DNA of 18,001 nt from NCBI GenBank assembly GCA_040752575.1, contig JBFMGK010000008.1, positions 1 to 18,001 on the forward strand, given 5' to 3'. Position 1 is the first letter of the stretch, and the number at the start of each line of letters is the position of its first letter. The notes beneath the pieces are model-generated. The model made no database searches, had not been told where the DNA came from, and was given only the letters and a program-made list of their open reading frames with translations. This document shows, in pieces, positions 2,785 to 18,001 of the stretch. Both the position numbers and the translations under genes were made by a program. Origin of the DNA: Candidatus Bipolaricaulota bacterium (GTDB lineage Bacteria; Bipolaricaulota; Bipolaricaulia; UBA7950; UBA9294).

Positions 2785-3999
2785 ATGAACAGCCCCAGTC
2801 CAAGGATCCGACTTCTGATCCTCGCAGCGCTCACCACCGCCCTCGTCGGCGGATGTCGACTTCTCGACGTCGTGGGCGCCGCAGATGAGGTGACCGACCT
2901 GTCGTATCCCGTCGTCGACACCGGGCAGGTCAAGACCTACGACGCTGCGTCGGAGATCGCCGCGCCGGACAGCGGGCAGCCCTTCTACGGACAGGACGCT
3001 CAACACGAAGGGCGGACTCCGCGTTATCGGAGCCACGGCGACGGAACGGTGACCGATCTTGTGACGGGGCTCATGTGGCAGGTCGCCGTCGGCCCCAAAC
3101 GCACGTACAGCCAGGCAGCGTCCGAAGCTTCGAGTTGCGCCCTCGCCGGGTACCCGGACTGGCGTCTGCCGACGATCAAGGAGCTGTACTCGCTGATCGA
3201 TTTCTCCGGACTCGACGTCGACCCCACGAGCACGTCAGGGGCTACGCCGTTCCTCGACACCGAGGCGTTCGACTTCCGCTACGGAGACGTCTCCGCCGGG
3301 GAGCGAATCATCGACGCCCAATGGGTTTCCAGCACGTCGTACGTGGCGGGCCAACTGGTCTTCGGCGTCAACTTCGCGGACGGGCGCATCAAGGGGTACG
3401 GAACCACGATGCCGGGTGGAGCGCAGAAGACGTTCTACGTGCGCTACGTAAGGGGCGCAGCGTACGGAGCGAACGACTTCGTGGATCGCGGCGATGGGAC
3501 GGTTCTCGATGCAGCAACGGGACTTCTGTGGTCGAAGGCCGACTCGGGACGCGGCATGGATTGGCCGTCGGCGCTGGCCTACGTTGAATCGCTCAACGCC
3601 GCAGCGTTCCTTGGCTATTCCGACTGGCGTCTACCGAATGCGAAGGAACTCCAGTCGATCGTCGACTACGGACGTTCTCCTGACACGACGGACTCTCCGG
3701 CCCTCGACCCCGTCTTCAGCGCCACGCCCATCGTGAACGAAGGCGGCAAGACCGACTGGGGGTTCTTCTGGACGAGCACGACCCACGCGTCGGTGCGCGG
3801 CGGCAGTTCGGCCGTCTACATCGCCTTCGGCCGCGGACTGGGGTACATGAGCGGTCGATGGGTCGACGTGCACGGCGCGGGCTGCCAGCGGTCGGATCCC
3901 AAGACGGGAAGCGCGTCGCAGTACCCGCTGGGGCACGGACCGCAAGGCGACGCGGTCCGCATCGAGAACTTCGTGCGCGTCGCGCGTGACGCCGACTAG
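2785..3999 (+). CDS. DUF1566 (Lcl C-terminal) domain lipoprotein with two repeats
   Basis: Lipobox LVGG-C; two GDGTVxDxxTGLxW...DWRLPxxKELxS repeats; AAAGGAG RBS. Confidence 0.88.
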   Translation: MNSPSPRIRLLILAALTTALVGGCRLLDVVGAADEVTDLSYPVVDTGQVKTYDAASEIAAPDSGQPFYGQDAQHEGRTPRYRSHGDGTVTDLVTGLMWQVAVGPKRTYSQAASEASSCALAGYPDWRLPTIKELYSLIDFSGLDVDPTSTSGATPFLDTEAFDFRYGDVSAGERIIDAQWVSSTSYVAGQLVFGVNFADGRIKGYGTTMPGGAQKTFYVRYVRGAAYGANDFVDRGDGTVLDAATGLLWSKADSGRGMDWPSALAYVESLNAAAFLGYSDWRLPNAKELQSIVDYGRSPDTTDSPALDPVFSATPIVNEGGKTDWGFFWTSTTHASVRGGSSAVYIAFGRGLGYMSGRWVDVHGAGCQRSDPKTGSASQYPLGHGPQGDAVRIENFVRVARDAD

Positions 4000-4119
4000 C
4001 CGTCGAGAGCATGCGTCGCGATCAGGGCGGGCGGCCCACGTGGGGAATCCTCGCGGGATCGGGACGAAACCCCAAGGCCTGATCGTCGCGCACCGAGAGG
4101 CGAAACAGGGAGGGAGCTC

Positions 4120-4800
4120 ATGCTTCAGGTGAACGAGCCGGCCCGCAGTTTCACGGTCCGCCCGATCGCCGCGGGGGATCGAGAGGCCGTGCGGCGCCTC
4201 GCCGCGGAAGACCTCTACGAGAGGCCCGGCCTCCTGAAGCGGTTCCCGCGCTGGGGCGAGTACCGCGCCGACGGGCTCGCGCACTTCTACGACGCCGAGC
4301 CGGAGTCCTGCTTTGTCGCCGTCTCCCAAGGCGAAGTCGTCGGGAATCTCCTCGGGACGACGGACGCAGCGAGGAGCGAGCAGCGACGCCTCTCCTACAC
4401 TCGGCCCCTCCAGCGAAGGCGCCTGCTGCACGGCGCCTATGGAGTGCCCGTCTTTCTCGTTCCCATCGTGAGGACGGAACGTCGGCCGCCGCTGGATCCG
4501 CCGCCGCCCGTGGATCGCGAGCTCTACCCCGCGGAGTTCCACCTCGGCGTCGCGGAGACCTGGCAACGCAGAGGCGTCGGACGTGCGCTGGTCGCTCGAT
4601 TCGAGGGCTACTTGAGGGATCGCGGAGTTCCCGGCTACCGCATCTACGCGGCGTCGTACCACCCCAAGGGCGTTGCGTTCTATCGGCGGCTCGGGCTTGA
4701 CGAACTCGGAACGTTCCGCTGGAAGCTGCACGACGGCAGCGCGTGGCGCGAGGTGACGGAGCACGTGTTCGTACGCCGCCTCAAGCGCGGAAGCCCCTAG
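4120..4800 (+). CDS. GNAT family N-acetyltransferase
   Basis: Motif A HLGVAETWQRRGVGRALV and AFYRRLGL; GGAGGGAG RBS. Confidence 0.85.
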   Translation: MLQVNEPARSFTVRPIAAGDREAVRRLAAEDLYERPGLLKRFPRWGEYRADGLAHFYDAEPESCFVAVSQGEVVGNLLGTTDAARSEQRRLSYTRPLQRRRLLHGAYGVPVFLVPIVRTERRPPLDPPPPVDRELYPAEFHLGVAETWQRRGVGRALVARFEGYLRDRGVPGYRIYAASYHPKGVAFYRRLGLDELGTFRWKLHDGSAWREVTEHVFVRRLKRGSP

Positions 4801-4881
4801 GAAGAGCTGGCTCGCCGAGCGCGACCCGCCCGGACTTGTCCGCCCGCACCGGATTGTGCTAGGAACGAGCGGAGGTGGGGA

Positions 4882-5655
4882 ATGAAAACGCTTTCGCTCG
4901 TCTTGGCGACGTGCGGGCTCGTCGCGGCCGGCGCGCTCGCGAACGAGGTGTCGGTCGACTATCTGGGACACTCTTGTTTCGCGCTGAACGAAGAGGCCGG
5001 CCCGGTCATCGTGATCGATCCCTACGCCGACTACCTTCCCTACCCCGCGCTTCCGCGCGCGGCCGACGTCGTCTTGATCACCCACGGGCACATCGACCAC
5101 TGCCCCTACTGCTTTGGGCAACAGGAACGCGTCTCGGGAGATCCGACGATTGTCTGGCCGTTCGACGCCCAGGGACAGGTCAGGGAGGGGACGTGGAAGA
5201 TCGCCGACGGCCTCTCGGTGCGGTTCATCGAAGCGAGCCATGTCACGGCAAGCGGCGGCGGCGAGGGCCTGGTCACTCTGTTCAGCTTCGCGCTGGGCGG
5301 CATCCAGTTCGCTCACCTTGGCGATCTCGGCCGGCTCCTCACTCCCGAACAGGTCGCCGCTCTCGGCGCGGTCCAGGTGCTGTTCGTGCCCGTTGGCGGC
5401 GCGTACACGATCGGCGCCGCGGAGGCCGTCGCCGTGGTCAAGCAGCTTCCGACGGTTCGGATCGTGATTCCTATGCACTTCTTCGTCGACGAGTATTGCC
5501 CCTGGCCCGACATGGCGCCGGCGGACGGCTTCCTTTCCCTTGCCGAGGAAGAGGGGTGGAGCGTACGGCGTCCCGCGTCGTCCCGGGTCGGCCTTGAGCC
5601 GGAGACGCTTCCCGAGGCCGTCGAGGTCTGGCTTCTTCCCTTCGCGATCGAGTAG
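4882..5655 (+). CDS. Secreted MBL-fold metallo-hydrolase
   Basis: Signal peptide (MKTLSLVLATCGLVAAGALA), YLGHSCF, IDPY, THGHIDH (HxHxDH), HLGDLG, IPMHF; GGAGGT RBS. Confidence 0.9.
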   Translation: MKTLSLVLATCGLVAAGALANEVSVDYLGHSCFALNEEAGPVIVIDPYADYLPYPALPRAADVVLITHGHIDHCPYCFGQQERVSGDPTIVWPFDAQGQVREGTWKIADGLSVRFIEASHVTASGGGEGLVTLFSFALGGIQFAHLGDLGRLLTPEQVAALGAVQVLFVPVGGAYTIGAAEAVAVVKQLPTVRIVIPMHFFVDEYCPWPDMAPADGFLSLAEEEGWSVRRPASSRVGLEPETLPEAVEVWLLPFAIE

Positions 5656-5716
5656 CGAGACGCTGTGGATACGAACGAGGCGTACTGTCCGTCTCTGGTA
5701 TACGCGAGGGGGACCT

Positions 5717-6145
5717 GTGGACGAGTTCGTGGTGAGCAAGGCCGGCGAGAGCGAAGCTACCGAGGTCGGCAACGGCCTGCGGGAGTACAACCACGCCGCG
5801 ATCGGAGAGATTGCGTATTCGCCCGTGTGGCTGGCGGCGAAAGACGCTGCCGGGGCGGTTCTCGGCGGGTTCATCGGCACGGTGTACCTGGGTTGGCTGG
5901 CGATCGACGTCCTCTGGGTCGCCGAGTCGCATCGCGGCCGCGGAGTCGGCGCTGCCTTGCTGCGCGAGGCGGAGAAAGAGGCCGTGGAGCTTGGGGCCCG
6001 CGCAGCGTATCTCGACACGTTCCGTTGGCAGGCGAGGGAGTTCTACGCGAAGCACGGCTACTCCGAGTTCGGCCGACTCGAGGACTTCCCCACGGGCCAC
6101 TGGCGCGCGTTCATGAGGAAGGATCTGACCGCCCCAGACGCATAG
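5717..6145 (+). CDS. GNAT family N-acetyltransferase
   Basis: GTG start after GAGGGGG; LWVAESHRGRGVGAALL and YLDTFRWQAREFYAKHGY. Confidence 0.9.
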   Translation: MDEFVVSKAGESEATEVGNGLREYNHAAIGEIAYSPVWLAAKDAAGAVLGGFIGTVYLGWLAIDVLWVAESHRGRGVGAALLREAEKEAVELGARAAYLDTFRWQAREFYAKHGYSEFGRLEDFPTGHWRAFMRKDLTAPDA

Positions 6146-6232
6146 CTCGACGCCCAGCAGGCCCTCATGAAGTCCCTTCGCGGGCAGCCTCATCCAGGCC
6201 CGCTTGTGCAGAGAACGGCGCTCTGCTCGGCC

Positions 6233-7282
6233 CTACCCCGCCTTCCGATGCGGGTGCCGGTGGTGTGCGTCCGGCGCGTGCGGGTGCGAGTGCAGGAGCC
6301 GCGGGTGGGCATGGGCGTGAGCGTGTCGAGTTGCGGCCGCTACGCCATCCGGATGGTCATGCGCGTGGTGGCCGTCGTCGTGTCGGTGCGCGTGCGCGTG
6401 AACGGTGTCGAGATGCACGTGCCGGTGTTCGTGCCGTTCGCCGGCGAGAACGAAGGCGGCAGCGGCCATGAGCCCGAGAGAGACGAAGAACGCCCATCCC
6501 GGCAGCTCCCGGAACACGAGGAGCGAAAGCGCCGCGCCGACAAACGGCGCGAGGCCGAACAGCACGCCCGTGCGCGCCGCCCCCACGCGACGCAGCGACT
6601 GAACGAACAGCGAGATGCTCGCCCCGTAGCTCGCCGCGCCGAGGAGGAGCGCCAGCAGCACCTGGCTCCACGCCGGCCACAGCCGTCCCAGGCCCGCCGC
6701 CAGCGCGAGCGAAAACGATCCTGCGGCAAGGCCCTTGACGGCGACGATGCGACTCGGGTCCTTGAGCGAGATTCGCCCCGTCAGATTGTTGTCGAGGCCC
6801 CAGGCGAAACAGGCGCCGACCACGGCCAAAGCGCCAAGAGAGCCCGTCCATCCGGACGACGGATCGAGCGACAGCAGGGCGCCGCCCGCCGCAACCGCCG
6901 CAATCGCACCCCACGTCCGGAGGCCGACGCGCTCGCGGAACAGCGCCAGCGCGAAGAGCCCCGTGGCGACGACCTCGAGGTTCAGCAAGAGCGAGGCGGT
7001 CGCCGCCGACGTGCGCTCGAGCCCGACGAGGAGTAGGATCGGCCCCGCGACACCCCCGGCGAGCACCGCGCCGGCCAGCCACGGGAGGTCCCGCCGTTCG
7101 AGGCGGGCCTCCAACTCCCTCGCCCCCAAAGCCCTCCGAACCAGGACCAGGAGACCGAGCGAGATCCCCGCTCCCGCGTAGAGAAGCCCGGCCAAGAGAA
7201 TGGGATCGACGTCGCGCAACAGGAGCTTCGAGAGCGGCACGCCAACTCCGAACAGCACCGCCGCCAGAACCCCGTACAGCAT
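6233..7282 (-). CDS. DMT/EamA family transporter with His-rich C-terminal tail
   Basis: About 10 hydrophobic segments in two EamA repeats (GLERTSAATASLLLNLE, WGLDNNLT); tail HEHRHVH...HAHRHDDGHHAHDH...HAPDAHHRHPH. Confidence 0.92.
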   Translation of the reverse strand: MLYGVLAAVLFGVGVPLSKLLLRDVDPILLAGLLYAGAGISLGLLVLVRRALGARELEARLERRDLPWLAGAVLAGGVAGPILLLVGLERTSAATASLLLNLEVVATGLFALALFRERVGLRTWGAIAAVAAGGALLSLDPSSGWTGSLGALAVVGACFAWGLDNNLTGRISLKDPSRIVAVKGLAAGSFSLALAAGLGRLWPAWSQVLLALLLGAASYGASISLFVQSLRRVGAARTGVLFGLAPFVGAALSLLVFRELPGWAFFVSLGLMAAAAFVLAGERHEHRHVHLDTVHAHAHRHDDGHHAHDHPDGVAAATRHAHAHAHPRLLHSHPHAPDAHHRHPHRKAG

Positions 7283-11111: not shown

Positions 11112-11221
11112 AGTGACGCGCATAGCAGCCCGGAATCGCCGGAAACGGAATTCACAGGGAGTTCGCCAAGAAGGGCGTCACAAACTCCTGGGGATTGAAG
11201 AGCATCCAAACGTACAAGCGG

Positions 11222-11303
11222 GAGGGATTCATGACCCCGGCCGTCCACCTCTACGCCCGCTGGTGGACGGCTTGGCAGTTCGCGAGACGGTCAGGCGACC
11301 GCT
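11222..11303 (+). repeat. Structured dispersed repeat, copy A
   Basis: 76/82 identical, ungapped, to 17834-17915; hairpin GCCGTCCACC-12nt-GGTGGACGGC. Confidence 0.9.
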
Positions 11304-13170: not shown

Positions 13171-13431
13171 GAGCGCACCCGCGCGAGCTTCTGTCCCCAG
13201 GAAGAAGAGAAGGCCCGACCGGGCGCCCAAGAGCCAACCGGATGGCTGAGCACTCGGCGGCCGGTCGTGATCTGTGGCGCCTGGTTCATCGAACCCGCGA
13301 TGAACCGGCTGGTCGTGTCACCGCCGGTGCAGACGAACCCAGATCGCGACCATGGGTCAAGACGAAGCCGGCGTGGACAGCCGTCCCGCTTATCCCTTTA
13401 GGGCAGCGGGAATGGGGAACTTATATCCGGC

Positions 13432-13803
13432 CTAGCTCAAATTGGCCTTGCAGACCGGGCAGACGTAATGCCCCAGAAGCCTGCTCGCCAGGATCTTCTG
13501 TCCCTTCGTGTCGTAGCACGCCGTGCAGAATAGACCGTCTTCTCCCTCGAACTTGTAGCATCCGAACTTGACTTCAGACGGCTTCTCGCGCGTCCTAGAC
13601 TGAGTTTCCCTTAGGAGCCTATTCTCCTCGGAGAGAATTGCGATTCGTTCCTTGAACTCCGCAATAGCCATCTTCGCGTCGGCCAATTCGTTCGACAGGT
13701 CAGCGAGCAGGTTGCGCATCTCTGCCTGATCGGCCTTCTTGGCTATTTCTTTCAGCTTCGACACGAGCGCAATGGCGCTGTTCACTGAAGCGAGAATGTC
13801 CAT
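13432..13803 (-). CDS. Hypothetical coiled-coil protein with C-terminal Zn ribbon (IS passenger)
   Basis: MDILASVNSAIALVSKLKEIAKK helical heptads, then FCTAC...YVCPVC; own promoter upstream. Confidence 0.85.
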   Translation of the reverse strand: MDILASVNSAIALVSKLKEIAKKADQAEMRNLLADLSNELADAKMAIAEFKERIAILSEENRLLRETQSRTREKPSEVKFGCYKFEGEDGLFCTACYDTKGQKILASRLLGHYVCPVCKANLS

Positions 13804-13825
13804 GTGCCACCACCACCCGCCGAGC

Positions 13826-13854
13826 ATCATAGACACGCGCGCCCGCTGCTGCAA
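13826..13854 (-). promoter_or_regulatory. Promoter of the Zn-ribbon passenger gene
   Basis: Minus strand TTGCAG (13854-13849), 17 bp, TATGAT (13831-13826). Confidence 0.5.
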
Positions 13855-13932
13855 TCGCGGGAACATCGTGCGCCATATATCTGACCACGAACTGGTCAGA
13901 GCAAACGAGATTCGGTTCGAGTACAATGCCGC

Positions 13933-14006
13933 GCCCCCGTACCTCAACGGATAGAGGACACCTTTGGCGAAGTGTGAAGTTCAGAGTTCGAGTCTCTGCG
14001 GGGGTA
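13933..14006 (+). tRNA. Non-canonical tRNA: anticodon GGC with bulged stem, or 8-nt loop; Arg-like D-loop; no encoded CCA
   Basis: Acceptor GCCCCCG/CGGGGGT + A73; D arm CCTC-AACGGATA-GAGG; T arm CAGAG-TTCGAGT-CTCTG; anticodon arm CACCT-TTGGCGA-AG[T]GTG; TACAAT -10 box at 13922-13927. Confidence 0.85.
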
Positions 14007-14023
14007 CTTGCGTATTCTTGCCC

Positions 14024-14057
14024 TTGACAGCCAACACGTCAATGTCTACACTGTCAA
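14024..14057 (+). promoter_or_regulatory. Near-consensus sigma70 promoter overlapped by an inverted repeat
   Basis: TTGACA (14024-14029), 17 bp, TACACT (14047-14052); TTGACAG...CTGTCAA inverted repeat at 14024-14030 / 14051-14057. Confidence 0.7.
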
Positions 14058-14148
14058 CTGCCAAAGGTACTCTGTCCGGGTAGCGCTATGCGCCTTGGAC
14101 TCGGAAAGAGATGCTGACGAAGCCTCCGAGAGGGGGCTTCGTCGTTGT
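14058..14148 (+). ncRNA. Candidate ~90-nt small RNA (IS passenger)
   Basis: Lies between the promoter and a terminator-like hairpin and has no ORF; nested stems CTCT/AGAG, CCGGGT/ACTCGG, GCGC-TAT-GCGC. Confidence 0.5.
14116..14148 (+). terminator. GC-rich terminator-like hairpin, possibly bidirectional with the transposase
   Basis: GACGAAGCCTCC-GAGA-GGGGGCTTCGTC then GTTGT; the G-U pair forms only on the + strand. Confidence 0.6.
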
Positions 14149-14152
14149 ACTG

Positions 14153-15013
14153 CTAACAGCTTCCTAGAACAAAGCTGACTAGCGCCTCACGATCCTTGAG
14201 GTTTGACTGCCGGAAGGCGAACTCGTCCAGGTATTCCTGAAGGTACTTGGCCGAGAGATGGTGGTAGACGCCCATCAGGCCGCGCTTGAAGAGGCCCCAG
14301 AAGTTCTCGACGCGGTTGACGTGGACGCCACGGCGGGAGTACTGCGAGTGTCCGGCCCAGCCGTGATTCACGGTGTAGTGTGGCGCGATGTCTCCGAGGA
14401 ACTGGAGGCGGAGCGCGGCGTCCGTGTAGAACGACCTGACCTTGCCGAGGTTCGTAGTGCAGACACGAACAATCTCCGCCTTGGTCAGGCGTTCCAGAAC
14501 GAACATGCGAACGGTTCCAGACGTGCGCGAGACCATTCCCAGAACGTCCTTCGCGCAGTAGGGGATGTTCCCGGTCGCAGTGCCGCCATCGGCCTTGATA
14601 ACGCCCTCGTCGATCTCGACTTTCCCGGTTACGCGCACGCCGAGCATGTTCTTCTGGATTGCGAGGCGTATACGGCGGCTCAGGTACCAAGCGGTTTTGT
14701 ATGTGACGCCAAGCTCGCGCTGGATCTGCTTCGACGAGATCCCTTTCGGGGAGTGGCAGCCGAGCCAGACAGCCATTAGCCAGCGTGGTAGATCAATGTG
14801 CGTCTTGTGGAACACGGTTCCAGATGTGACAGAGAACTGATACCGGCACTCGCACTGCCACTGATGGCGAGATCCCATGTAGGTGACGGACTTCGATCCG
14901 CAGCGGGGACAAGTCACGCCGTTGGGCCAGCGCATCGAGGCCATGTACTCCTCGCAGGATTCTTGCGTAGAGAACTGCTTTCGCGCTTCGACCAGGCTTG
15001 TGATCTTGTCCAT
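14153..15013 (-). CDS. IS1595 family DDE transposase
   Basis: N-terminal Zn ribbon (RWPNGVTCPRC...WQCECRYQFSVTSGTVFHKT), HTH (GISSKQIQRELGVTYKTAW), VEIDE, YTD, HVNRVENFWGLFKRG, YLDEFAFR; GGGAGG RBS before ATG 15013. Confidence 0.96.
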   Translation of the reverse strand: MDKITSLVEARKQFSTQESCEEYMASMRWPNGVTCPRCGSKSVTYMGSRHQWQCECRYQFSVTSGTVFHKTHIDLPRWLMAVWLGCHSPKGISSKQIQRELGVTYKTAWYLSRRIRLAIQKNMLGVRVTGKVEIDEGVIKADGGTATGNIPYCAKDVLGMVSRTSGTVRMFVLERLTKAEIVRVCTTNLGKVRSFYTDAALRLQFLGDIAPHYTVNHGWAGHSQYSRRGVHVNRVENFWGLFKRGLMGVYHHLSAKYLQEYLDEFAFRQSNLKDREALVSFVLGSC

Positions 15014-15027
15014 GTCTTGACCTCCCG

Positions 15028-15098
15028 CGTTCATTATCCAATGAACGTATCGAGAGTCAAGCCCTTGGCGGCCCGGTTCATTGCTTGTAGAATGAACC
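15028..15098. promoter_or_regulatory. Divergent promoters (transposase / RHH), each overlapped by a GTTCATT...AATGAAC palindromic operator
   Basis: CGTTCATT-ATCC-AATGAACG (15028-15047) covers the -10 of minus-strand TTGACT-16-GATAAT. GGTTCATT-8nt-AATGAACC (15075-15098) covers the -10 of plus-strand TTGGCG-17-TAGAAT. Confidence 0.7.
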
Positions 15099-15099
15099 C

Positions 15100-15270
15100 A
15101 TGCCTAGGAAACCGATGTTCGAGAAGGACCCGCTGGTTCCGAAGCAGATCTCGCTTCAGTTCAGCATCAAAGAGGCCCTGAAAGCCGCCGCGCTGAAGTC
15201 GGGGAAGTCTGAGTCTGAGATCGTGCGGGATGCCCTAGCCGCCGAATTGAAGAAGTACGGAAAGGACTAG
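15100..15270 (+). CDS. CopG/ribbon-helix-helix DNA-binding protein, 56 aa, leaderless (below the ORF-track cutoff)
   Basis: MPRKPMFEKDPLVPKQISLQFSIKEALKAAALKSGKSESEIVRDALAAELKKYGKD*: beta strand, helix, then the GxSxSEIVRDAL helix typical of RHH; ATG 6 nt after TAGAAT. Confidence 0.85.
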   Translation: MPRKPMFEKDPLVPKQISLQFSIKEALKAAALKSGKSESEIVRDALAAELKKYGKD

Positions 15271-15281
15271 TCGAACCCGTC

Positions 15282-15917
15282 TCACGATCTCAGGGGCATC
15301 TTGCCAATCAGAGATCCAAGATCCACGGACGACCAACACGCTTTGCGCAACTCCATCCCGTCTGGTGGGAAACCGACGTGGATAACACGTTTGCCTTTCT
15401 CCTGGACGAATTCGACCGCAGGGATGTAGTCTGCATCGGCCGAAACAAGAACGGCCGTGTCATACGTGTCTTCCCAAGCGTGCTTCAGGAGGTCCGTGAC
15501 AAGCCCCGTGTCAATGCCTTTCTCTCCCATTCTTCGGATTGGTTCCTTGCAGTACGGGCACACGGAGATCTCTGCGTGGCAGACGGGGCATTTGGGAGGG
15601 CTCTTTGGCTTGCGTTCTTTCGTGACGACCTTCATCCCCGGCGCTCTGGACACCACATTCTCTAGCCACGACTTCAGATGCCCGTCTTTGGGGTTCCAGG
15701 CGTCATATGAAGCGTAGACGATTCCACCCACATACTTTCCTGGCGATTCCCCGGTTGCTGCGATTACCTCGTCCGCACGGTTAGCGATCCAAACCGGCAA
15801 CGCAATCCAATCCAGTTTCAGTTGCGCGCCAGCTCGCTCGTTGAGAGTCAGTTGGAAGTTCCAGTAGTCGAGAAAGACCCGAAGGCGCTGAGTCTGAGCT
15901 GCGGGGTTCTCTGACAC
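15282..15917 (-). CDS. NYN domain (LabA/DUF88, PIN-like) ribonuclease with inserted Zn ribbon (IS passenger)
   Basis: RVFLDYWNF, CPVC...CPYC, EKGIDTGLVTDL, AVLVSADADYIPAV, KGKRVIHVGF, ELRKAC; GGAGG RBS favours GTG 15917. Confidence 0.93.
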   Translation of the reverse strand: MSENPAAQTQRLRVFLDYWNFQLTLNERAGAQLKLDWIALPVWIANRADEVIAATGESPGKYVGGIVYASYDAWNPKDGHLKSWLENVVSRAPGMKVVTKERKPKSPPKCPVCHAEISVCPYCKEPIRRMGEKGIDTGLVTDLLKHAWEDTYDTAVLVSADADYIPAVEFVQEKGKRVIHVGFPPDGMELRKACWSSVDLGSLIGKMPLRS

Positions 15918-15940
15918 GCTCAACCTCCGACTAAGGAATT

Positions 15941-16028
15941 CAGGGGGGCCATGGCGGCCCCCCTGGGTCTATCATTTCAGGCGGCTCTCACCGGGGTCTA
16001 TGGCATACCGCCTGAGGGCTGTAATGAC
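15941..16028 (-). ncRNA. Structured leader RNA plus terminator-like hairpin upstream of NYN-1
   Basis: GUCAUU/AAUGAU and UCAGGCGG/CCGCCUGA stems, ATAGACCC present twice, then a perfect 10-bp CAGGGGGGCC/GGCCCCCCTG hairpin. Confidence 0.5.
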
Positions 16029-16063
16029 TTGAGTGTAGCGCGATCCGCAGATCTGTCAAGTCA
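16025..16063 (-). promoter_or_regulatory. Promoter of NYN-1 bracketed by an inverted repeat
   Basis: Minus strand TTGACA (16059-16054), 16 bp, TACACT (16037-16032); TGACTTGA / TCAAGTCA inverted repeat at 16025-16032 / 16056-16063. Confidence 0.65.
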
Positions 16064-16354
16064 CAGATGTCCTCCAGATGGCAGAAATAGGGCCATTCGG
16101 AGCCCCGCGCACTTGCTGCAAGGATCCGTGCGCGAAGACCGCAATCCCCCTGCTGCGGTCGCGGGATAGACGCTAGTACGGAGTCTGCCGGCGGTAGGTC
16201 GGGCGGCGAGAATGGCTTCATATGCGTGCAGACTAGCCGCGCCGCAGCTCTGGGACAAGGCTGTAATGGGTGGCCGCGGCCCTAAAGGGATAAACATGAC
16301 AGCCGTCGAGGCGCGCTCCGAACCAAGAGTCCTGCCGCAGCGCGCCTACGACCG

Positions 16355-16414
16355 GAGGGACTTGCGAACCCGGCCGTCCTCCGCCTCGCCCATTGGAGGA
16401 TGGCTTGGCAGGTC
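16355..16414 (+). repeat. Structured dispersed repeat, copy B (diverged, shorter)
   Basis: GAGGGACTTGCGAACCCGGCCGTCCTCC-12nt-GGAGGATGGCTTGGCAG aligns ungapped with the first 60 nt of copies A and C. Confidence 0.8.
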
Positions 16415-16690
16415 TGCCGGCTGCTCGCGACGCAGCCTCGGGGAGGCATCACTCTCCGGGCCTTGAAGCGAGCGCACGACAGGAATCACGTTCCACTCTA
16501 ACTTGACTCCTCTGCACGACGGTTCGTGAGCTCGCCACCGAGGATCGCTGTCGAACCTTGTCAGTCTGCGCTCCCGGGAGTTCGATGCTCTTCCCTAGAG
16601 ATGCATCGAGCTGACGAACTACTCTTCCTCAAGGATATGTGCTATCATCATCCGATACTCCATCTGGACGCGCCGGGTGACCAACGTCCC

Positions 16691-16719: not shown

Positions 16720-16725
16720 GTGCGC

Positions 16726-16816
16726 AGTTATCGTCCTCTTGTCGCTAGGCCGGATGAATCAATCCGAGCAGGTGCCGAGAGAGTATTTCCAGGGCAGCCT
16801 GCGGGCTGCCCTTTCT
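16726..16816 (+). ncRNA. Structured leader RNA plus intrinsic terminator upstream of NYN-2
   Basis: CTCTT/GAGAG outer stem, CGGAT-GAATCA-ATCCG apical hairpin, then AGGGCAGCC-TGCG-GGCTGCCCT-TTCT (16791-16816) before the GGAGG RBS. Confidence 0.5.
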
Positions 16817-16836
16817 GCTGGACAGCGGAGGCTCCA

Positions 16837-17722
16837 ATGAGAGTCGCCCTGTTCTTCGACGGAAAGAACTTCTGCAGCGCCCTCTCAGCTAGGCACCCCG
16901 GCGTTGAGATCGACTACGACAAACTAGCAGCCTGGGTCACCAGCAAGGTTGGTGGCACCATCCCCGAGTTTCAAGGCGCTTACTAACTACACTGGCCACA
17001 GCGAGGCCCCCGGCGGCGCAACGCAGCCGTTCACGAGCTTCCTGACGAACCTCAACTTGCGGACGGGCTTCTTCGTACAGCGAGAACCGCGCGTCCGAAG
17101 GACTGCGAAGTGTAGACACTGCAACCGCGGCCGGAACTATTGGACGGAGAAGCGCGTCGACACACGACTCGTCGCAGACATGATCCACTACGCTGCAGTG
17201 GACGCCTACGATGTCGCTGTTCTCTTCTCTGGTGATCAGGACCTAGTTCCTGCTGTGGACGCAGCAAAGCATCTTGGCCGGCGGGTGTACGTCGCCACAT
17301 GGTCGCAGCGTGGGCTTTCGAGGGAGCTGCGCGCGTGCTGTTTCGGCGAGATCTGGCTGGAGGACGGGCTACCCGTGTTTCAGACAGGCCGGGTGCGTGC
17401 AACTTCCGCTCCTGCGTCGAGAACGGCAACAGCGTCTCCAGCCGCAACACTGCCTGCGGCGCCCCCGAGCACAGCCTGGGCGGGCGGACCCACGGCGCAG
17501 TCCACAATAGCTGCCGAGTTGACCAAGGCCGAGGGCAGGCTCCCCTGGGTGTCGCGCTGGTACTTCGAGAATCGCTGGGGCGGGGTAGGGCTACCCCCGC
17601 CCGGTTCCCCGGAGCGAGCGGCGGCCGTTCAGGCAGCAGTTCAGAACGCAGAGATCGAGGAGTATGAACACCCCGACCGGCTTGGAAGGGCAACAACAGC
17701 CCTACGAAGTCCGGCCGCGTAG
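16837..17722 (+). pseudogene. NYN domain protein with C-terminal extension, interrupted by a 1-nt insertion (or sequencing error)
   Basis: MRVALFFDGKNF...FQGAY-TAA at 16984-16986. Removing one A gives GAYYYTG, in frame with EKRVDTRLVADMI, AVLFSGDQDLVPAV, GRRVYV and SRELRACC. Confidence 0.88.
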
Positions 17723-17833
17723 CGGATCCGTCTCCCCCTGGAAAGGTGTTCGGGAGAAGCCACTCAGCGGGCCCGGATGACGCTGTGAACCACCTGGGAA
17801 AGGAACACAGACACTGTCGGACTTCTACGTCCA

Positions 17834-17915
17834 GAGGGGTTCATGAACCCGGCCGTCCTCCTCTACGCCCGCTGGAGGACGGCGTGGCAGTTCGCTAGAC
17901 GGTCAGGCGACCGCT
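17834..17915 (+). repeat. Structured dispersed repeat, copy C
   Basis: 76/82 identical to 11222-11303; hairpin GCCGTCCTCC-12nt-GGAGGACGGC. Confidence 0.9.
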
Positions 17916-17943
17916 AACTGCGGCGATCCAAAGCGACTTCGAA

Positions 17944-17997
17944 CGTACATGAGAGACGGGGCCACGTGACGATCAATGGCCCCGTCTCTCATGTACG
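17944..17997. repeat. Perfect 21-bp inverted repeat with 12-nt loop
   Basis: CGTACATGAGAGACGGGGCCA / TGGCCCCGTCTCTCATGTACG. Confidence 0.9.
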
Positions 17998-18001
17998 CCC
18001 G

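Follow-up and report, generated by a model that had tools for sequence, protein, structure and literature searches.

An IS1595-family element from a Bipolaricaulota genome carrying a putative NYN ribonuclease cassette and a tRNA-like gene among apparently independent passengers

Within the IS1595 family of insertion sequences (IS), groups such as ISNwi1 and ISNha5 are said to carry passenger genes, as Siguier et al. reportedly described in 2009. The element described here is a member of this family and lies at positions 13385-16298 of a stretch of 18,001 nucleotides (the window) from Candidatus Bipolaricaulota bacterium; it is 2,914 bp long and is bounded by terminal inverted repeats (TIRs) and by a perfect 8-bp target duplication at both sides. 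IS with passenger genes form a named category, the transporter IS (tIS; PMC7986276). They are the simplest vehicles moving genes not involved in transposition, and little is known about their cargo outside clinical bacteria. For the allo-tRNA-UAU of Acidobacteria, a tie to transposable elements or toxin-antitoxin loci has been considered possible (Mukai et al., NAR 2017, PMC5389517), and HEC-09, a defence candidate with an NYN domain, gave no protection against the phages tested, according to a preprint (10.1101/2024.01.29.577857). The reading which we consider the most probable for the window is that of a tIS with mosaic cargo, consisting of a core of transposase and ribbon-helix-helix (RHH) protein and of independent passenger modules.

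A repeat search of the window revealed inverted-repeat arms of 47 nt at 13363-13409 and 16274-16320, which are 77% complementary, and comparison by eye of the parts 13385-13409 and 16274-16298 showed complementarity at about 21 of 25 positions, as had been claimed in an earlier note on this DNA. The sequence ACAGCCGT adjoins the element on both sides, and the direct repeat at the element ends is identical over 10 of 10 positions (GACAGCCGTC). The IS tip was set 5 nt before TTATCCC by comparison with simple family members, including the plain IS of locus L081 (related loci carry L numbers); with this tip the duplication is of 8 bp and the element of 2,914 bp, despite the longer direct repeat, and the unit delimited in the earlier note was thus retained. 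The TIR core TTATCCCTTTAGGGCAGC is common to the ends of L014, L015 (two elements), L017, L018, L004 and L007, and a shorter core, TTATCCC(T/G)TT, was found at the ends of the plain ISs of about 1 kb in L048, L061, L078 and L081. In the closest clade (window, L004, L014, L015 and L017) each end adjoins a GACANNTGTC sequence. The central dinucleotide of this target occurs as direct and not as inverted copies in three complete elements (window, L014 and L015), indicating an 8-bp duplication of a preferred near-palindromic target rather than extended inverted repeats. Duplications of 8 bp were also observed in L014, L015 and L098. The target motif was counted 11 times in the source genome, compared with about 21 expected. 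At L014 (94-141) and L015 (5831-5870), two IS ends face each other across one copy of the 10-bp target, which points to tandem insertion, as expected if every insertion regenerates the target.

The transposase matched the Pfam models Zn_ribbon_IS1595 (PF12760, 6.8e-12) and DDE_Tnp_IS1595 (PF12762, 1.7e-19), corresponding to an N-terminal zinc ribbon and an ISXO2-like DDE domain, with the DDE profile match spanning positions 40-151 of 153, and reached 140.7 bits with NCBIfam NF033547 (cutoff 75); the earlier assignment of a complete element to IS1595 is in agreement with these models. Its translation probably starts with the ATG at 15013: the one at 15034 falls within a promoter-like site and a palindrome, and relatives align from residue 7-8 only. 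Inside the element ends are genes unrelated to transposition, namely those for an NYN ribonuclease, a zinc-ribbon protein and a tRNA-like RNA, which places the element among the tIS. Elements of the closest clade are 2.7-3.9 kb long and the transposase occupies only 0.86 kb, indicating that carriage of cargo is the rule in this clade. The G+C content is 55-59% in the element, compared with 61-72% upstream.

The composition of the cargo was followed among relatives of the transposase (80 loci fetched through the transposase) and of the NYN protein (10 loci: L003, L094-L101 and L109). Relatives of the NYN, RHH and zinc-ribbon proteins were detected by tblastn in 0 of the 80 transposase loci, and a tRNA was found in 0 of the 10 NYN loci. 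A DNA search of 184 genomes of the phylum yielded relatives of the transposase, RHH, NYN and zinc-ribbon genes, each separately, and no relative of the stretch 13933-14152, which comprises the tRNA-like gene and a putative small RNA (sRNA). The transposases of L014, L015, L016, L017 and L018 are among the closest relatives, those of L014, L015 and L017 being about 80% identical to that of the window and those of L016 and L018 likewise; none of these five loci contained a tRNA-like gene, and the 'sRNA' region is not conserved downstream of the closest transposases. Their cargo, mostly unnamed, differs from locus to locus, with membrane proteins and small Cys-rich proteins in L014, an RHH protein, small proteins and a 280-aa protein in L015, DUF3800 in L016 and other proteins in L018. 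The earlier note had proposed a single RNA-centred addiction or anti-phage module in which RNAs restrain the RNase, and had named homologous elements that never co-carry these parts as evidence against it. Tabulation of the relatives' cargo showed that NYN, RHH and transposase do recur together (L098/L109), whereas the RNA parts were never co-carried, so the proposal failed for its RNA parts. Judged from sequence comparison, the passengers appear to be separately travelling modules and not one RNA-based system.

Every part of the element occurs once in the source genome (2.16 Mb, 78 contigs). Searches for other copies and for the empty site were negative in the source genome, in 61 relatives and in the 184 genomes of the phylum, and no match to the element was obtained by blastn in a plasmid collection. 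One public groundwater DNA run shares 6% of words with the element; short contigs from this run cover 13405-13662, 13816-14098 and parts of the transposase/RHH region, and no empty-site joints were found among them. The absence of evidence for movement has no bearing on the membership of the element in IS1595 by sequence.

The NYN protein belongs to the LabA-like ribonucleases. Residues D17, D136, D161 and D163, as well as C110, C113, C120 and C123 of the inserted zinc ribbon, are invariant in all 31 aligned sequences, and the protein is predicted to be a catalytically intact RNase. The predicted structure (pLDDT 93) had its best fold matches in the LabA-like protein 2QIP, followed by MARF1 NYN domains, and no sequence-level match among solved structures. 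The gene is preceded by a leader of about 110 nt with two conserved hairpins, the loops of which are conserved too. An alignment fold of seven leader sequences yielded 30 pairs, four of them with compensatory changes, and the single-sequence fold reached -50.7 kcal/mol (z -3.73); Rfam 15 gave no match at E up to 1 for 15918-16059. The NYN nuclease with structured leader described in the earlier note was thereby recovered. Nucleotide identity of the cassette, measured from the -35 hexamer through the stop codon, is 71-81% in L003, L094, L095, L096, L097 and L098, and its conservation starts just upstream of TTGACA-16/17-TACACT/TACAAT.

A second complete element, L098/L109, comprises 2,973 bp and carries NYN, transposase, RHH and a 171-aa protein; it is bounded by inverted repeats (best match 34 nt, 85% complementary) and by a perfect 8-bp duplication, TTTGCAAT, and its transposase shares only 37% identity with the one in the window. 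The NYN gene adjoins an IS1595 transposase or remnant in L003, L094, L095, L098 and L109. Of the five contexts of the cassette, the window included, three place it beside IS1595 transposases. In L003/L094/L095 NYN is followed by a transposase remnant, L096/L097 contain NYN without transposase and without RHH, and L100/L101 retain only the leader and the first 48 NYN codons. Close NYN relatives were found in 3 of the 184 phylum genomes, and all three adjoin an IS1595 transposase. On this sequence evidence, the cassette is taken to be a mobile unit captured by different IS1595 lineages. PADLOC returned domain-level matches to HEC-09 (E 1e-13, residues 119-191, about a third of the protein) and to an NYN model (3.3e-6). 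Membership of the NYN protein in a proven defence system was not supported, as the PADLOC matches are at the domain level only.

Some further observations concern the NYN gene. Immediately before the NYN -35 hexamer, at 16062-16074 (-), stands the sequence GGACATCTGTG, which differs from the clade target consensus by one mismatch; GGACA at this place is kept in the cassettes of other loci, and the GGACATCTGTG boundary may be an old capture edge. In L097, translations of spurious open reading frames (ORFs) at about 3700-3943 and at 6230-6476 are near-identical, which suggests that a direct repeat of about 240 bp encloses the NYN cassette together with a galE-like gene. The host gene that adjoins the insertion on its right side, at 16720-17722 (+), likewise encodes an NYN domain with a Cys-rich insert; it shows 37% identity over 81 residues to the cargo NYN and is split into two frames near 16985, by a frameshift or an assembly error.

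Recurrence showed that the RHH protein accompanies the transposase rather than NYN. The two genes are divergent in L108 (RHH 79% identical, no NYN) and in L098/L109 (RHH 54% identical), and L015, which contains no NYN, has an RHH gene on the strand opposite to the transposase, about 0.5 kb upstream and separated from it by a 111-aa ORF. The RHH fold occupies residues 16-52 of 56, with no C-terminal tail past it. In the window, the 86-bp region between the divergent genes contains palindromes at 15028-15047 and 15073-15098, which overlap both promoter-like sites; the region is conserved in L108, and L098 carries a different palindrome of its own. RHH (+) and NYN (-) are convergent in the window, and in L098 the transposase separates them. 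NYN was found intact, with no RHH detected by tblastn, in L003, L095, L096 and L097. A role of RHH as NYN antitoxin was rejected because of this gene order and because the cassette is kept without RHH, and the protein is therefore likelier to be a regulator of the transposase. A palindrome resembling these operator-like sites, GGTTCAT-N12-ATGAACC, occurs outside the element at 13283-13308, some 80 bp to its left in the host sequence.

For the zinc-ribbon protein, 123 relatives with a length of about 124 aa were found across many phyla, none of them annotated with a use. In L006, a relative of the gene (72% nucleotide identity) lies beside an IS30-like fragment, with no IS1595. No match was obtained by tblastn in phages, and four matches of 35-42% identity were found on Burkholderia/Paraburkholderia plasmids. 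In L126 and L127, the two Burkholderiaceae plasmids inspected, the zinc-ribbon gene comes after two unnamed genes that point the same way, one encoding 63-80 aa and the other about 300 aa, and VapBC or type I restriction genes were observed nearby.

The tRNA-like gene scored 46.2 bits (E 3.1e-7) with Rfam RF00005, for which the gathering score is 29. ARAGORN reported it as 'tRNA-???', with a 6-nt loop and no nameable anticodon, and Infernal placed a bulged U in the 3' strand of the anticodon stem, leaving the loop UUGGCGA. In its acceptor stem the gene matches the host tRNA-Arg(CCU) exactly, and arginine tRNAs account for the three best global matches among host tRNAs. No irregularity was seen in the D arm, T arm or variable loop, and the acceptor and the usual tertiary positions are intact. 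The groundwater contig over 13816-14098 differs from the window by eight substitutions and two gaps; the six listed substitutions and the two indels all lie outside 13933-14007 (two substitutions are unlisted). The 'odd tRNA' of the earlier note was therefore found to be a tRNA-like gene with a cloverleaf and an irregular anticodon arm, in which a regular 5-bp anticodon stem, a 7-nt loop and a nameable anticodon, as in decoding tRNAs, were not found; nor was the 8/4 or 9/3 arrangement of allo-tRNAs, the acceptor/T arrangement being 7/5. By the identity rules of tRNAs, neither arginine (the GGC reading of the loop lacks C35) nor alanine (the stem lacks G3:U70) would be charged.

A promoter scan of the element revealed five sigma-70-like sites, compared with 0.9 expected from shuffles. 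Four precede NYN, the transposase, RHH and the 'sRNA', and the fifth, on the minus strand at 14042-14014, is directed at the antisense of the tRNA-like gene and of the zinc-ribbon gene. No site was found for the tRNA-like gene, so that the statement that each passenger has its own promoter signal held for NYN, RHH and the 'sRNA', and not for the tRNA-like gene. The promoter/terminator-bounded sRNA described earlier was likewise only partly borne out: a promoter-like site and a hairpin are present, but the hairpin, at 14116-14143, follows the transposase stop at a distance of 10 nt and could be the transposase terminator rather than the end of an 'sRNA'. Rfam 15 gave no match at E up to 1 for 14055-14150.

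Irregular tRNA calls were not confined to the window. ARAGORN made 18 tRNA or tRNA-like calls, many of them irregular, in 16 of the 80 transposase loci. Fourteen of the 18 are found at most 1 kb from the transposase, in a zone which comprises 28% of the flanking bases, and 13 of these 14 are on the transposase strand; the density of calls was 0.096/kb near the transposase and 0.010/kb far from it (binomial p 1.4e-5, the loci not being independent). Inverted-repeat-bounded units contain tRNA-like genes in the window, L024, L036 and L043. The latter is a unit of about 3 kb (3014-6070) with 16-nt inverted repeats in a metagenome-assembled genome of Zixibacteria, and contains a broken IS1595 transposase, tRNA-Gln(TTG), tRNA-Ala(TGC) and a HARE-HTH protein. 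In the Acidobacteriota loci L027, L036, L039 and L083, the calls are UAU 'tRNA-Ile' species with lengths of 85-90 nt, encoded on the transposase strand 0.4-2 kb downstream; the 8/4 arrangement was seen in L027 and L039, and the RNA of L036 passes the Rfam tRNA-Sec threshold (58.5 bits).

In the Bacteroidota loci L051, L052, L059, L060, L066, L068 and L077, a 75-nt tRNA-like gene stands 17-31 nt before the transposase. Its cloverleaf shows compensatory changes in 13 of 21 pairs among the seven sequences, a G:U occupies the third acceptor pair (G3:U70) in all seven, and the loop ends with GACA. The 5' strand of the anticodon arm together with the loop recurs as a direct copy of 12-15 nt, 160-215 nt upstream, the sequence of which is specific to each locus; the copy is exact in five of the seven, has two mismatches in L060 and is interrupted by N in L051. 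Three other Bacteroidota loci (L135, L137 and L140) show the order tRNA-like gene, terminator, arm copy (11-16 nt) and transposase, and in all 10 loci the arm and its second copy vary together from locus to locus. Exact inverted copies of the arm, 13-15 nt long and about 40-75 nt from the tRNA-like gene, were found at L004 (2340-2352), L009 (1294-1308) and L024 (5169-5181), and these could pair with the arm if both are on one transcript. An interpretation of the Bacteroidota arm copy as flanking target DNA was not supported, since the upstream gene is conserved too and the copy thus lies inside a larger conserved unit. A right-hand duplication was not found in these Bacteroidota, for which 1-2 copies per genome were available for delimiting the ends.

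These data bear on a reading in which the tRNA-like gene is a general working part of IS1595 elements, an RNA controlling or directing the transposase. The position and strand of the calls, the enclosure of tRNA-like genes in repeat-bounded units, the compensatory changes, and the direct and inverted arm copies all argue for it, as does the arm of the window gene, which starts with GGACACCT, the first 8 nt of the clade target consensus (L015 and L014 flanks). However, no exact second copy of at least 10 nt of the window arm was found, its best inexact match lying just upstream of the NYN -35; the window gene runs towards the transposase, an orientation not shared by 13 of the 14 others; tRNA-like genes are missing from the five closest relatives; the kinds of tRNA-like RNA differ by group (7/5, 8/4 allo-tRNA, long variable arm); the Bacteroidota arm copy lies inside a larger conserved unit; and at least one tRNA near a transposase, that of L038 (71.8 bits, CCA present), belongs to the ordinary genes of its host. 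A general working part is accordingly considered possible, but rather doubtful. The more far-reaching proposal is that IS1595 transposons of several phyla carry a tRNA-shaped RNA as an RNA device setting the expression or the site choice of the DDE transposase, that its anticodon arm either has a covarying second copy, direct or inverted, near the transposase gene or resembles the target of the clade, that the window gene is one form of it, and that the NYN cassette with its leader is a second new RNA-protein module; this we hold to be unlikely.

Several observations nevertheless weigh against the preferred reading of a tIS with independent passengers. The roughly ninefold density of tRNA-like calls near transposases suggests that the tRNA-like gene may be a working part and not a mere passenger. 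Its tRNA body is canonical at all positions inspected by eye, beyond what a decaying pseudogene would retain. In the groundwater relative, about 97% identical, the zinc-ribbon and tRNA-like genes occur along with the promoter region, indicating that the left arm exists elsewhere as a unit. The benefit of the NYN protein is only proposed, its sole match in the defence library, HEC-09, being a candidate without defence, and the mobility of the window copy is deduced from its ends alone, neither an empty site nor a second copy having been found.

The RNA genes might also be inert, the tRNA-like gene being a decaying captured tRNA-Arg pseudogene and the small transcript the product of a chance promoter beside the transposase terminator. 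The irregular anticodon arm, the lack of relatives in the phylum and the position of the hairpin, exactly where the transposase terminator is expected, are consistent with this, as is the statement that tIS cargo is often unrelated to transposition (PMC7986276). A pseudogene is hard to reconcile with damage restricted to one arm, however, and promoter-like sites exceed the chance expectation. Moreover, the plus-strand promoter hexamers are unchanged in the groundwater contig, with two substitutions and two indels in the spacer. Inertness is thus judged to be improbable. Least probable of all, and very improbable, is the proposal that all parts work as a single addiction or anti-phage module, with NYN restrained, decoyed or compensated for by the tRNA-like and small RNAs and with RHH as regulator or antitoxin: the location of all parts between one pair of ends, the five promoter-like sites, the intact catalytic residues with domain-level PADLOC matches and the occurrence of irregular tRNAs close to toxin-antitoxin loci of Acidobacteria (Mukai et al., PMC5389517) speak for it, but the RNA and protein parts do not co-occur, 13933-14152 has no relative among the 184 genomes, NYN persists without RHH in L003, L095 and L096/L097, the two genes are convergent or separated by the transposase, RHH has no C-terminal tail, and HEC-09 showed no defence in the reported assays (preprint 10.1101/2024.01.29.577857).

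Under the preferred reading of a tIS with mosaic cargo, the element would have been inserted recently into a near-palindromic site of the GACANNTGTC type, with duplication of 8 bp. RHH would probably bind the two palindromes between the divergent genes and thereby repress the promoters of the transposase and of its own gene. The NYN cassette, with its consensus-like promoter, leader and RNase, would be self-contained and would have been captured by at least two distantly related IS1595 transposases. We infer that the leader limits NYN synthesis, an autoregulation in which, most likely, the RNase itself or a partner would recognise the conserved hairpins, and the cassette is probably maintained because its nuclease gives an advantage in conflicts with phages or competing mobile elements. 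The coiled-coil/zinc-ribbon protein would be a widespread separate passenger. The tRNA-Arg-derived RNA would be expected to undergo tRNA-like processing, as its body is retained, and is unlikely to decode, given the irregular anticodon arm. The features of the element are listed in Table 1.

Table 1. Position, strand and basis of the features of the IS1595-family element and its target site (coordinates of the window)
Feature	Position	Strand	Basis or remark
Target duplication, left copy	13377..13384		ACAGCCGT, within GACANNTGTC-like target
Terminal inverted repeat, left	13385..13409	+	Core TTATCCCTTTAGGGCAGC; shared with relatives' ends
Coiled-coil and Cys4 zinc-ribbon protein, 123 aa, passenger	13432..13803	-	No Pfam family; phrog_1244 2.3e-6
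tRNA-like gene, tRNA-Arg-type body, irregular anticodon arm	13933..14007	+	Rfam, ARAGORN, host tRNA comparison
Two overlapping promoter-like sites	14014..14052	+ 14024-14052 (TTGACA-17-TACACT); - 14042-14014	Promoter scan
Putative small transcript, about 90 nt, ending in hairpin 14116-14143	14055..14150	+	Fold z -4.04
IS1595-family transposase	14153..15013	-	Pfam, NCBIfam; relatives align from residue 7-8
Divergent control region	15014..15099		Two palindromes and facing transposase/RHH promoter-like sites
Ribbon-helix-helix protein, 56 aa	15100..15270	+	Pfam RHH_1 8.2e-6
NYN (LabA-like) ribonuclease, 211 aa, inserted Cys4 zinc ribbon	15282..15917	-	Pfam 2.3e-14, fold, invariant residues
NYN promoter and two-hairpin leader	15918..16059 (promoter 16059-16032)	-	Promoter scan, alignment fold
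Terminal inverted repeat, right	16274..16298	-	Repeat search and comparison with relatives' ends
Target duplication, right copy	16299..16306		ACAGCCGT

Outside the element, a REP-like repeated hairpin (core GCCGTCCTCC...GGAGGACGGC) was observed at 16346-16472, 17825-17893 and 11221-11281 and at G000:C56:880-905; one copy begins about 40 nt right of the insertion, and relatives lie beside tRNA clusters in G007 and G004. A long near-perfect hairpin is located at 17940-18001 (-), at the window end, where weak chance matches to microRNA models were far below the gathering scores.

The elements compared here define an IS1595 clade in which the target is strictly palindromic and the cargo interchangeable. 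The RNase cassette of the window element has been captured repeatedly, and the leader, which is not in Rfam, is a candidate new cis-regulatory RNA for which a ligand or partner can be sought. In Bipolaricaulota, Bacteroidota, Acidobacteriota and other phyla, genes of tRNA shape cluster by IS1595 transposases, and some are accompanied by a covarying copy of the anticodon arm. Should such an RNA act on transposition, it would be a new kind of RNA partner for DDE transposases; should it be inactive there, the origin of many 'odd tRNA' annotation calls would still be explained. A literature search, which covered few subscription journals and did not include ISfinder, returned nothing joining IS1595 with tRNA-like RNAs or NYN genes, no link of 'allo-tRNA' with 'transposase' as a pair and no prior description of the window's cargo combination for the IS1595 family.

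Compared with described IS1595 tIS, the element shares the zinc-ribbon and DDE transposase, the 8-bp duplication, the TIRs in common with plain 1-kb members and the location of passengers within the ends. It differs in its RNase cassette with conserved leader, in the RHH gene paired with the transposase and in the tRNA-like gene, and its clade differs in the strong preference for GACANNTGTC targets and in abutting elements that share one target copy. The NYN protein resembles NYN/LabA-like RNases (PF01936; 2QIP, MARF1 NYN domain) in domain, invariant acidic residues and predicted fold, whereas the inserted Cys4 zinc ribbon, the conserved leader RNA and the repeated linkage to IS1595 set it apart. 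With HEC-09 of PADLOC, which is an NYN protein embedded in Hma systems, it has the NYN domain in common; HEC-09 has another N-terminal part, the match covers about a third of the protein, and HEC-09 gave no defence against the phages tested. VapBC-type pairs, in which a PIN-fold RNase is joined to an RHH or AbrB antitoxin, are similar in that a PIN-like RNase and an RHH protein occur in one mobile element, but in the window the two do not share an operon, RHH has no toxin-binding tail and NYN is intact without RHH elsewhere. Finally, allo-tRNAs (PMC5389517) are likewise non-standard tRNA genes beside transposon genes, and the 8/4 UAU species of L027 and L039, with related ones in L036 and L083, resemble them; the window RNA differs from these in its 7/5 arrangement, its tRNA-Arg-type body, an anticodon arm that alone is irregular, and its occurrence in a different phylum.

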